Below, piece after piece: positions 14,227-14,536 of a DNA stretch of 20,139 nucleotides. Both the position numbers and the translations under genes were made by a program. The stretch is from a virus (taxonomy: Duplodnaviria; Heunggongvirae; Uroviricota; Caudoviricetes), in IMG/VR virus record IMGVR_UViG_2728369187_000007, positions 1 to 20,139 of that record, one strand, 5' to 3'. The notes beneath the pieces were generated by a model. It was not told where the DNA came from. It did no database searches and saw only the letters and a list, made by a program, of their open reading frames with translations. Each line of letters starts with the position of its first letter. The first letter of the stretch is position 1.

Positions 14227-14302
14227 GGCCCTTTAGCTCAGTGGTGAGAGCGAGCGACTCATAATCGCCAGGTCGCTGGTTCAAATCCAGCAAGGGCCAC
14301 CA
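14227..14302 (+). tRNA. tRNA with anticodon CAT (elongator Met or Ile2-type)
   Basis: 76 nt. 7-bp acceptor stem GGCCCTT/AAGGGCC, D-arm GCTC...GAGC, anticodon loop CTCATAA, T-arm GCTGG-TTCAAAT-CCAGC, encoded CCA. G1-C72 pair argues against an initiator. Confidence 0.85.
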
Positions 14303-14303
14303 G

Positions 14304-14380
14304 CCGCCACTAGCTCATCAGGAAAGAGCGTCAACCCTTTAAGTTGAGTGTGCGAGGTTCGAGTCCCCGGTGGCGGTCCA
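14304..14380 (+). tRNA. tRNA-like gene, anticodon TTT (Lys) as read, atypical anticodon loop
   Basis: 77 nt. Perfect 7-bp acceptor stem, D-arm GCTC...GAGC, anticodon stem TCAAC/GTTGA with loop CCTTTAA (C at position 33), T-loop TTCGAGT with one A-C mismatch in the T-stem, encoded CCA. Confidence 0.6.
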
Positions 14381-14382
14381 GT

Positions 14383-14458
14383 GCCGACTTAGCTCAGTAG
14401 GTAGAGCAACTGACTTGTAATCAGTAGGTCACCAGTTCGATTCCGGTAGTCGGCACCA
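14383..14458 (+). tRNA. tRNA-Thr (anticodon TGT)
   Basis: 76 nt. Acceptor GCCGACT/AGTCGGC, anticodon stem ACTGA/TCAGT with loop CTTGTAA, T-loop TTCGATT, encoded CCA. Confidence 0.8.
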
Positions 14459-14461
14459 TAT

Positions 14462-14536
14462 GCGGGCATCGTATAATGGCTATTACCTCAGCCTTCCAAG
14501 CTGATGATGCGGGTTCGATTCCCGCTGCCCGCTCCA
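14462..14536 (+). tRNA. tRNA-Gly (anticodon TCC)
   Basis: 75 nt. Acceptor GCGGGCA/TGCCCGC, anticodon stem TCAGC/GCTGA with loop CTTCCAA, T-arm GCGGG-TTCGATT-CCCGC, encoded CCA. D-stem is only 3 bp. Confidence 0.7.

Follow-up and report, generated by a model that had tools for sequence, protein, structure and literature searches.

We analyzed a 20,139-nucleotide stretch of DNA from a virus of the Caudoviricetes (positions 1 to 20,139 of IMG/VR record IMGVR_UViG_2728369187_000007; "the window" below), which carries an array of transfer RNA (tRNA) genes between the gene for the late antiterminator Q and a P21-type holin gene. ARAGORN finds exactly four tRNA genes in the window, all on the plus strand between positions 14227 and 14536, and nothing else. 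These genes, referred to here as tRNA1 to tRNA4, are separated by intergenic spacers of 1, 2, and 3 nucleotides; all four encode their CCA ends, and all score above the Rfam RF00005 gathering score of 29 bits (cmscan; Table 1). All four tRNA genes are real. A first-pass annotation of the sequence had described four tRNAs with 1- to 3-nucleotide spacers and, from a manual fold, the anticodons CAT, TTT, TGT, and TCC; ARAGORN and Rfam bear this out, with the same four anticodons and with a score for tRNA2 that lies above the threshold.

The array occupies the moron slot of a lambdoid late operon, downstream of Q and of sites resembling pR' and tR' and upstream of the holin gene. The annotation of prophage L001, which is near-identical to the window (99.5% identity over 10410 to 15300 and 97.2% over 15403 to 20139), agrees with this layout; there, the NCBI Prokaryotic Genome Annotation Pipeline (PGAP) labels Q as "bacteriophage antitermination protein Q." The wider setting is a lambdoid prophage, a near-identical copy of which is inserted beside a tRNA-Ser gene and mtfA in Escherichia coli strain 165. 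In a phage encoding Shiga toxin (Stx) 2a, the equivalent slot holds ileZ-argN-argO-stx2, and in the K-12 prophage Qin, cspB/cspF lie between the Q homologue ydfT and essQ. The equivalence of the three slots had been proposed in the first-pass annotation, and the Stx2a phage and K-12 annotations support it.

Table 1. Array, gene, and regulatory features of the Q-to-holin interval (positions in the window)
Feature	Position	Strand	Evidence
Late antiterminator Q gene, upstream edge of the slot	13337-14032	+	Pfam PF06323 Phage_antiter_Q, E 3.4e-89
Putative pR'-like late promoter, TTGCAA-17-TATATT	14016-14044	+	Consensus scan, 9/12 matches; end of Q as in lambdoid phages
Hairpin and T-run CCCGC-CCACAA-GCGGG-TTTTTT, tR'-like terminator of a short late leader	14096-14121	+	Sequence
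Putative sigma-70 promoter of the cassette itself, TTGCAA-17-TATTAT	14189-14217	+	Consensus scan
tRNA1: tRNA-Ile2, CAU	14227-14302	+	ARAGORN cat; Rfam 72.5 bits
tRNA2: tRNA-Lys(UUU) variant, argN scaffold	14304-14380	+	ARAGORN ttt; Rfam 44.4 bits
tRNA3: tRNA-Thr(UGU), reads ACA	14383-14458	+	ARAGORN tgt; Rfam 73.8 bits; thrU identity
tRNA4: tRNA-Gly(UCC), reads GGA	14462-14536	+	ARAGORN tcc; Rfam 64.9 bits; glyT identity
Structured 3' trailer of the thrU-glyT module	14537-14720	+	Hairpin 14543-14553/14578-14588; perfect 15-bp inverted repeat 14596-14610/14654-14668
P21-type holin gene, downstream edge of the slot	14829-15044	+	Pfam PF04971 Phage_holin_2_1, E 1.4e-35

tRNA1 matches ileZ of the Stx2a phage at 76 of 76 positions, K-12 ileX at 68 of 76, and metT at 54 of 77. 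Its acceptor stem (GGCCCUU/AAGGGCC) contains C4-G69 and C5-G68, where metT has U4-A69 and A5-U68; we take these to be the pairs by which TilS tells tRNA-Ile2 from tRNA-Met, a discrimination that Ikeuchi et al. reportedly traced to them in 2005. PGAP labels the gene tRNA-Ile and ARAGORN labels it Met; the latter identity is ruled out by the ileZ homology and the acceptor-stem pairs. We therefore assign tRNA1 to tRNA-Ile2 (ileX/ileZ class), which reads AUA and in which the CAU anticodon is presumably lysidine modified. tRNA3 and tRNA4 are base-for-base copies of K-12 thrU (76/76) and glyT (75/75). In the host, the gene order is thrU-tyrU-glyT-thrT-tufB, and thrU and glyT are separated by tyrU together with spacers of 8 and 116 nucleotides. 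In the prophage, tyrU and both host spacers are missing, the two copies lie 3 nucleotides apart, and the match to host flanks extends only to the 2 nucleotides immediately 5' of glyT; what was captured from the host thrU operon is just the sequences of mature-tRNA length.

tRNA2 combines a lysine anticodon with the body of an arginine tRNA. It is identical to the Stx phage argN, a tRNA-Arg(UCG), at 65 of 77 positions and to the host lysT at 47 of 77. The argN scaffold is recognizable from the C1-G72 acceptor pair, the D loop AUC(A/G)GGA(U/A)A, and the CGAGG/CCCCG T arm, the last of these being identical to the T arm of argN. Position 35 is U rather than C35, an identity element for arginyl-tRNA synthetase, while A20 is retained; the UUU anticodon constitutes the main identity set for lysyl-tRNA synthetase (LysRS). 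Descent from lysT is contradicted by the low identity and by U73, C33, and C1-G72 in place of the A73/U33 type. We thus classify tRNA2 as a tRNA with a lysine anticodon that lies outside the lysT lineage, a derivative of the argN family that is no longer an arginine tRNA.

The argN loop is CUUCGAA, with the anticodon UCG and U33, and the loop of tRNA2 is C32 C33 U34 U35 U36 A37 A38. Relative to argN-type genes, tRNA2 has changed at three loop positions (U33C, C35U, and G36U), in the anticodon stem (G30-C40 to A30-U40 and U27·G43 or C27-G43 to U27-A43), and in the acceptor stem (U7·G66 or U7-A66 to C7-G66). Pair 3-70 is G3-C70 in tRNA2 and in other argN relatives and G3·U70 in the 933W-type argN. 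The acceptor stem of tRNA2 is therefore fully Watson-Crick (G3-C70 and C7-G66), unlike that of argN, which contains G3·U70 and U7·G66. G3·U70 is the major alanine identity element. The argN of Stx2a phage F349 (positions 3132 to 3208 of locus L002) has G3·U70, U73, C2-G71, and the paired CNG motifs C28-A-G30 and C40-U-G42, of the type preferred by the OLD nuclease of phage P2.

Unusual features of tRNA2 are C33, U73, C1-G72, U15/G48, and A51·C63. Two of them, C33 (loop CCTTTAA) and the A-C mismatch in the T stem, had been pointed out in the first-pass annotation; both are present in the sequence, and cmscan flags A51·C63 as nonstandard. This pair is shared by argN and tRNA2 and is replaced by G51·U63 in more distant argN relatives; because it alternates with G·U, the "mismatch" is the usual isosteric partner of a wobble pair. 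Among 17 distinct members of the family, 95% of cloverleaf cells are paired, and changes that compensate on both sides of the stem are found at 7-66, 27-43, and 30-40, with none in slid controls; most of the later stem substitutions are C to U opposite G, so that pairing is kept. The argN Rfam score is itself 43.0 bits, and the low score of tRNA2 is therefore a property of the scaffold rather than a sign of decay. In 119 IMG/VR loci found via a T-arm pattern, all tabulated UUU copies have C33, whereas their position 32 can be C, U, or A, and an exact search for a U33 version of tRNA2 returned no matches. Alternative registers of the anticodon arm that would restore U33 were rejected, since none retains a 5-bp stem and a 7-nucleotide loop. 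tRNA2 also retains U36-A37-A38 and the D-stem pairs G10-C25, C11-G24, and U12-A23, which are associated with N6-threonylcarbamoyladenosine at position 37 (PMC13276492). Single-sequence minimum free energy (MFE) folds of the four tRNAs and argN are uninformative on tRNA2, as even the bona fide thrU and ileZ give no cloverleaf by this method. The first-pass annotation had suggested that tRNA2 is nonfunctional or specialized. Given the scaffold score, the compensatory stems, and the fixed C33, the former appears less likely, and the latter fits better.

To what extent the array could serve codon supply can be judged from codon frequencies (per 1,000 codons), for which the host set consisted of 42 K-12 genes. 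ATA rises from 2.4 in K-12 to 10 to 12 in early and 6 to 8 in late prophage genes, ACA from 5.4 to 20 to 21 and 7 to 11, and GGA from 6.0 to 12 to 15 and 10 to 16. AAA, on the other hand, goes from 34.0 to 42 to 47 and 37 to 43. Enrichment over the host is thus 2- to 5-fold for ATA, ACA, and GGA but 1.1- to 1.4-fold for AAA; in an open reading frame (ORF) of an AT-rich island described below, ATA reaches 28. The host Ile2, Thr(UGU), and Gly(UCC) tRNAs are encoded by one- or two-copy genes, thrU and glyT being present once each, and host tRNA-Lys is encoded by at least five identical genes in one cluster. Because AAA is hardly enriched, codon supply explains three of the tRNAs and not the lysine one: tRNA1, tRNA3, and tRNA4 are rare-codon helpers for AUA, ACA, and GGA. 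The earlier idea that the whole set supplements overused codons holds for these three and fails for tRNA2. AGA, AGG, and CGA are enriched 3- to 6-fold in prophage genes, yet an arginine tRNA appears to have been turned into a lysine tRNA, which runs counter to a pure codon-supply logic.

Since AAA is not scarce, tRNA2 may be a spare lysine tRNA. We give about an even chance to a reading in which the operon comprises three rare-codon helpers and a spare, argN-derived tRNA-Lys that evades nucleases. A tRNA-type promoter belonging to the operon would drive its transcription, to which Q-modified polymerase coming from pR' would probably contribute after induction, and processing of the precursor would yield four tRNAs ending in CCA. 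tRNA2 would have arisen when the anticodon of an argN-type phage tRNA-Arg(UCG) was switched to UUU, the same lineage gaining U33C, A30-U40, and a Watson-Crick acceptor stem. The nucleases with which bacteria and competing mobile elements attack host tRNA-Lys(UUU), namely PrrC/RloC, AriB of PARIS, and P2 OLD, would then fail to cut it, and the phage could keep translating AAA and AAG once the host tRNA-Lys had been destroyed. Expression of tRNA2, its charging with lysine, decoding with C33, and resistance to nucleases are all predictions from its sequence.

The published determinants of these nucleases make the prediction specific. Host tRNA-Lys(UUU) is a target of PrrC, AriB, and, secondarily, P2 OLD, and the main AriB targets are three: Lys(UUU), Thr(UGU), and Asn(GUU). 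In host tRNA-Lys, PrrC cleavage falls immediately 5' of U34, next to position 33 (PMC3025547). AriB cuts the same tRNA between C40 and A41, and its cleavage is abolished by U39A and impaired by A41C and U16C (PMC12409363); a swapped 31-39 pair suffices for PARIS resistance in vivo (PMC11464382). Lambda-like phages are restricted by P2 OLD, whose preferred substrates have paired CNG motifs at 28-30 and 40-42 together with A37; like AriB, OLD cuts tRNA-Lys once, after C40, and Toprim nucleases frequently cut 3' of a cytosine (PMC12445682, a study that included a 245-tRNA coliphage library). tRNA2 has the same UUU anticodon as the targeted host tRNA and, in a comparison of sequences only, is substituted at these determinants: it has G39 (in a C31-G39 pair), U40, U41, C16, C33, and no CNG motif (Table 2). 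These differences suggest that the most likely role of tRNA2 would be that of a nuclease-insensitive replacement for host tRNA-Lys.

Table 2. Host lysT, tRNA2, and argN at positions relevant to tRNA-Lys nucleases
Position	Host lysT	tRNA2	argN
Anticodon arm	GUUGA-CUUUUAA-UCAAU	UCAAC-CCUUUAA-GUUGA	UCAGC-CUUCGAA-GCUGG
16-17	U16 U17	C16 A17	C16 G17
33	U	C	U
39-41	U, C, A	G, U, U	G, C, U
28-30 / 40-42	UUG/CAA	CAA/UUG (no CNG)	CAG/CUG (both CNG motifs)

Known systems resemble the array in part. The ileZ-argN-argO cassette of Stx phages (933W type; Stx2a_F349, AP012530) lies in the same slot after Q, with the same promoter-like element and similarly tight packing. Its first tRNA is identical to tRNA1, and its second is the homologue of tRNA2, with the same T arm and A51·C63 but with UCG, U33, and G30-C40 where tRNA2 has UUU, C33, and A30-U40. 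The window array carries the exact thrU and glyT copies in place of argO and is without stx; an Ile2-Lys-argO array in PPompW phages (Lys here and below denoting a tRNA2-type gene) is intermediate between the two. Phage T5 encodes a tRNA-Lys(UUU) that neutralizes PARIS (PMC11464382, PMC12409363). Like tRNA2, it is phage encoded, has the anticodon of the targeted host tRNA, and departs from the host tRNA-Lys sequence in the 31-39 pair, at position 41, and in having C16. However, the T5 tRNA is a diverged tRNA-Lys homologue of a virulent phage, with U33, A73, and G1-C72, whereas tRNA2 belongs to a temperate phage, is known from sequence, and has an Arg scaffold, C33, U73, and C1-G72. We took the T5 tRNA directly for this comparison; a distant BLAST search of phages with lysT gave matches of mixed isotypes. 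Phage tRNA-Thr(UGU) variants that resist P2 OLD through altered CNG motifs in the anticodon stem (PMC12445682) follow the same logic as tRNA2, which has lost both argN CNG motifs; that published case concerns Thr, not Lys, and the Thr tRNA of the window retains the sensitive host sequence.

The slot downstream of Q has other tenants of the isotypes targeted by AriB. SfI, P21, Sf6, and ST64T carry a phage-specific tRNA-Asn(GUU)/tRNA-Thr(UGU) pair there, and the authors of that study found the Asn tRNA not explicable by codon bias (PMC3636060). The SfI-type Asn tRNA is in this respect like the lysine tRNA described here, but the isotypes and scaffolds of the pair differ from those of the window array; SfI Thr(UGU) diverges from thrU (G39 and G41), whereas the window Thr(UGU) is identical to it. 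In SfI (JX509734; positions 739 to 894 of locus L149), the Thr tRNA reads U36-A-A-G39-C40-G41 and the Asn tRNA U36-A-A-C39-C40-U41, so that both depart from the host sequences at positions 39 and 41, which matter for AriB. Taken across phages, each of the three main AriB targets has a counterpart in the lambdoid slot downstream of Q, Thr and Asn in the SfI type and Lys here.

Several observations weigh against nuclease evasion by tRNA2. With C33, the near-universal U33 of the U-turn is lost, and decoding may suffer (PMC13276492). Position 73 is U, not A as in host and T5 tRNA-Lys, which makes charging by LysRS uncertain. Cleavage by another anticodon nuclease, the Kluyveromyces lactis gamma-toxin, is unaffected by U33C (PMC2275089), so C33 is not automatically protective, and the T5 tRNA-Lys, for which PARIS evasion has been validated, retains U33, A73, and a lysT-like body, unlike tRNA2. 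tRNA3, being identical to host thrU, should be sensitive to AriB and OLD, and overexpression of host thrU relieved OLD toxicity little or not at all (PMC12445682). With thrU and glyT identical to the host genes and host thrU barely rescuing OLD toxicity, we rejected the idea that the array as a whole is an anti-nuclease kit. Two variants of tRNA2 also point the other way: one with U8C, C4U, and C11U, found in 17 of the 119 loci and not called by PGAP, and one with a 1-nucleotide deletion in the D stem, found in 15 of them and scoring below the Rfam threshold. A copy with the D-stem deletion in PPompW prophages of O157-type strains (positions 3206 to 3281 of locus L003) also has G3·U70, and further degenerate copies occur at 830 to 909 of L147 and 795 to 874 of L148, indicating that the gene is undergoing loss in some lineages. 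Finally, nucleotide diversity (pi) was compared among 28 closely related haplotypes, because the unrestricted version was dominated by mosaic, nonhomologous flanks. The upstream spacer has a value of 0.040 and the trailer one of 0.016; for tRNA1 to tRNA4, the values are 0.002, 0.008, 0.011, and 0.001, respectively. The value for tRNA2 is 5-fold below that of the upstream spacer but just half of that of the trailer and above those of tRNA1 and tRNA4, which gives weak evidence of a modest constraint on tRNA2.

These findings have to be set against three other explanations. The decaying variants would be expected if tRNA2 were a nonfunctional or barely functional remnant of argN with a drifted loop, persisting between functional tRNAs in one transcript. 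Such a relic would account for the lowest Rfam score of the four, for the coincidence of C33, U73, U15/G48, and A51·C63, for disabling changes in several lineages (U8C, the D-stem deletion, and single stem mismatches), for a diversity above that of tRNA1 and tRNA4, and for the omission of the gene from two phage annotations and some PGAP annotations. We nevertheless consider it unlikely. The score is matched by that of the argN scaffold; between the Arg and Lys forms, both partners of three stem pairs were replaced, and later substitutions mostly preserve pairing; the acceptor stem became fully Watson-Crick, unlike that of argN. Moreover, the three loop changes yield exactly UUU with the U36-A37-A38 motif, C33 is invariant though its neighbor at position 32 varies, and 66 of the 119 IMG/VR copies are identical to the window copy.

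If tRNA2 is functional, it could still be an ordinary extra lysine tRNA, with all four genes enlarging the pool of decoders for the A-ending codons AUA, AAA, ACA, and GGA and with the differences from host tRNA-Lys being historical accidents of its argN origin. All four anticodons do read NNA codons; AAA and AAG together make up 55 to 64 per 1,000 codons in the prophage and 79 in the AT-rich island ORF, compared with 46 in K-12; and codon supplementation is the usual reading of the homologous Stx phage cassette and of the SfI Thr tRNA. We regard this explanation as improbable, because AAA is the major lysine codon of the host and only marginally enriched, the host has many identical lys genes, and the enriched arginine codons would have argued for keeping an Arg tRNA; the fixed C33 and the loss of both CNG motifs would be left unexplained. 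A further explanation assigns tRNA2 a part in tail assembly, where phage tRNA-Lys(UUU) would set the efficiency of the programmed -1 frameshift that produces the G-T fusion. In L001, the tail chaperone gene G ends GTT AAA AAA AAG TAG (25755 to 25764), with an A-AAA-AAG heptamer from which the -1 frame enters the annotated T; the slippery site is all lysine, so host or phage tRNA-Lys(UUU) would be the shifting tRNA. Slippage on A-AAA-AAG in E. coli dnaX was reportedly found by Tsuchihashi and Brown, in 1992, to depend on properties of tRNA-Lys(UUU). At the related locus L033, the G/T slippery site has one A fewer. We think frameshift tuning very unlikely. All the evidence for it is circumstantial, slippage on such a site already occurs with host tRNA-Lys, and the cassette is also found with other late regions, in PPompW phages and behind a methyltransferase gene; the slippery site lies outside the window, and just four of the loci compared reach the tail chaperone gene.

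The nuclease-evading reading can be extended, although we hold the extension only tentatively and with more doubt than confidence. tRNA2 would then be an evolved immune-evasion tRNA of temperate phages that disarms the lysogen's host. Through C33, A30-U40, and G39, it would go unrecognized by the nucleases of PrrC/RloC, PARIS, and P2 OLD that attack tRNA-Lys, and its own promoter would let the lysogen make it, so that the prophage would quietly disarm the tRNA-Lys-based abortive-infection systems of its host. The lambdoid slot downstream of Q, with its Lys, Thr, and Asn tRNAs, would serve generally as a locus against Toprim nucleases.

The cassette is widespread in E. coli. The exact 19-nucleotide T-arm pattern, searched in 185,579 species genomes, occurs among enterobacteria only in E. 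coli and Shigella flexneri; the other 11 matches are in unrelated taxa. Among 5,426 complete E. coli genomes, 463 contain at least 80% of positions 14100 to 14700, the interval with all four tRNAs, and about 770 records contain the Ile2-Lys module at 95% identity or more. The IMG/VR loci are mostly of the type Ile2-Lys-Thr-Gly (about 90 of the 119), with 12 of the type Ile2-Lys-Arg(UCU) and 6 of the type Ile2-Arg(UCG)-Arg(UCU). The Arg form is the more diverse, with 83 to 91% identity to the window module, suggesting that the Arg(UCG) form is probably ancestral and the Lys form derived.

Transcription of the array can be outlined from the elements in Table 1. The site that overlaps the end of Q may be the pR' late promoter, and the hairpin downstream of it may be the site of Q read-through; a terminator scan places this hairpin on the minus strand, and the region from 14048 to 14121 has subthreshold similarity to the prophage leader small RNAs isrK and isrJ. 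The -10 element of the cassette promoter is followed by a G+C-rich discriminator, CCTGCGCCC, and then by tRNA1. In seven cassettes, TTGC of the -35 element and the entire -10 element are invariant, while the DNA farther upstream is unrelated and belongs to either a Q gene or a DNA methyltransferase gene. Because the promoter-like element is invariant across unrelated upstream contexts, the cassette appears to carry its own promoter; transcription in the lysogen, with a Q-dependent boost after induction, is plausible. The region that follows tRNA4 (14537 to 14828) folds with an MFE of -95.2 kcal/mol (z = -4.72), none of 200 shuffled sequences being as stable, and it matches no Rfam family. thrU-glyT and the structured trailer travel together, as the same module is found downstream of stx in the Stx phage phi467.

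Elsewhere in the window, an AT-rich island (8666 to 10409; GC content, 0.32 to 0.37) is absent from the otherwise 97 to 99% identical prophage L001. Its ORF (8897 to 10384, plus strand, 495 amino acids) matches NCBIfam NF047389, "P-loop ATPase, Sll1717 family," at 250 bits and PADLOC PDC-M28C weakly, has no Pfam match, and is very rich in ATA, AGA, and AGG; it looks like a defense-type moron. An HNH endonuclease gene (16456 to 16806, plus strand) lies directly upstream of a gene for a P27-family small terminase, the usual HNH-terminase pairing of HK97-like cos phages. Rfam identifies a sok antitoxin RNA at 10488 to 10662 (plus strand, 110 bits), part of a hok/sok locus of the hokD type, in agreement with the L001 annotation, and a DicF small RNA at 4757 to 4808 (minus strand, 73 bits). 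Both RNAs are typical of Qin/Rac-like prophages.

The array itself is not new: hundreds of RefSeq genomes already have its genes labeled tRNA-Ile, -Lys, -Thr, and -Gly, and the cassette type has long been known from Stx phages. A full-text search of the available literature found no account of the four-tRNA array or of a lysine tRNA with C33, although absence there is not proof of absence, nor of Arg-to-Lys remodeling with a fixed C33, of the exact capture of thrU and glyT, or of differences in tRNA2 that match nuclease determinants. The Arg-to-Lys remodeling and the nuclease-evasion reading thus appear to be undescribed. Should this reading be wrong, what remains is a well-annotated form of the rare-codon cassette of Stx phages. 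Most demonstrations of counterdefense by phage tRNAs concern large virulent phages such as T5; if the reading is right, a temperate-phage version would be present in about one in seven complete E. coli genomes (770/5,426), and it would involve a lysine tRNA made by an anticodon switch in an arginine tRNA and able to work although it lacks U33, which is nearly universal. Three questions would be affected: how much of a tRNA's body is really required by LysRS and the ribosome, whether lysogens lose tRNA-based abortive infection, and how prophages survive induction in hosts with PARIS, PrrC, or P2.

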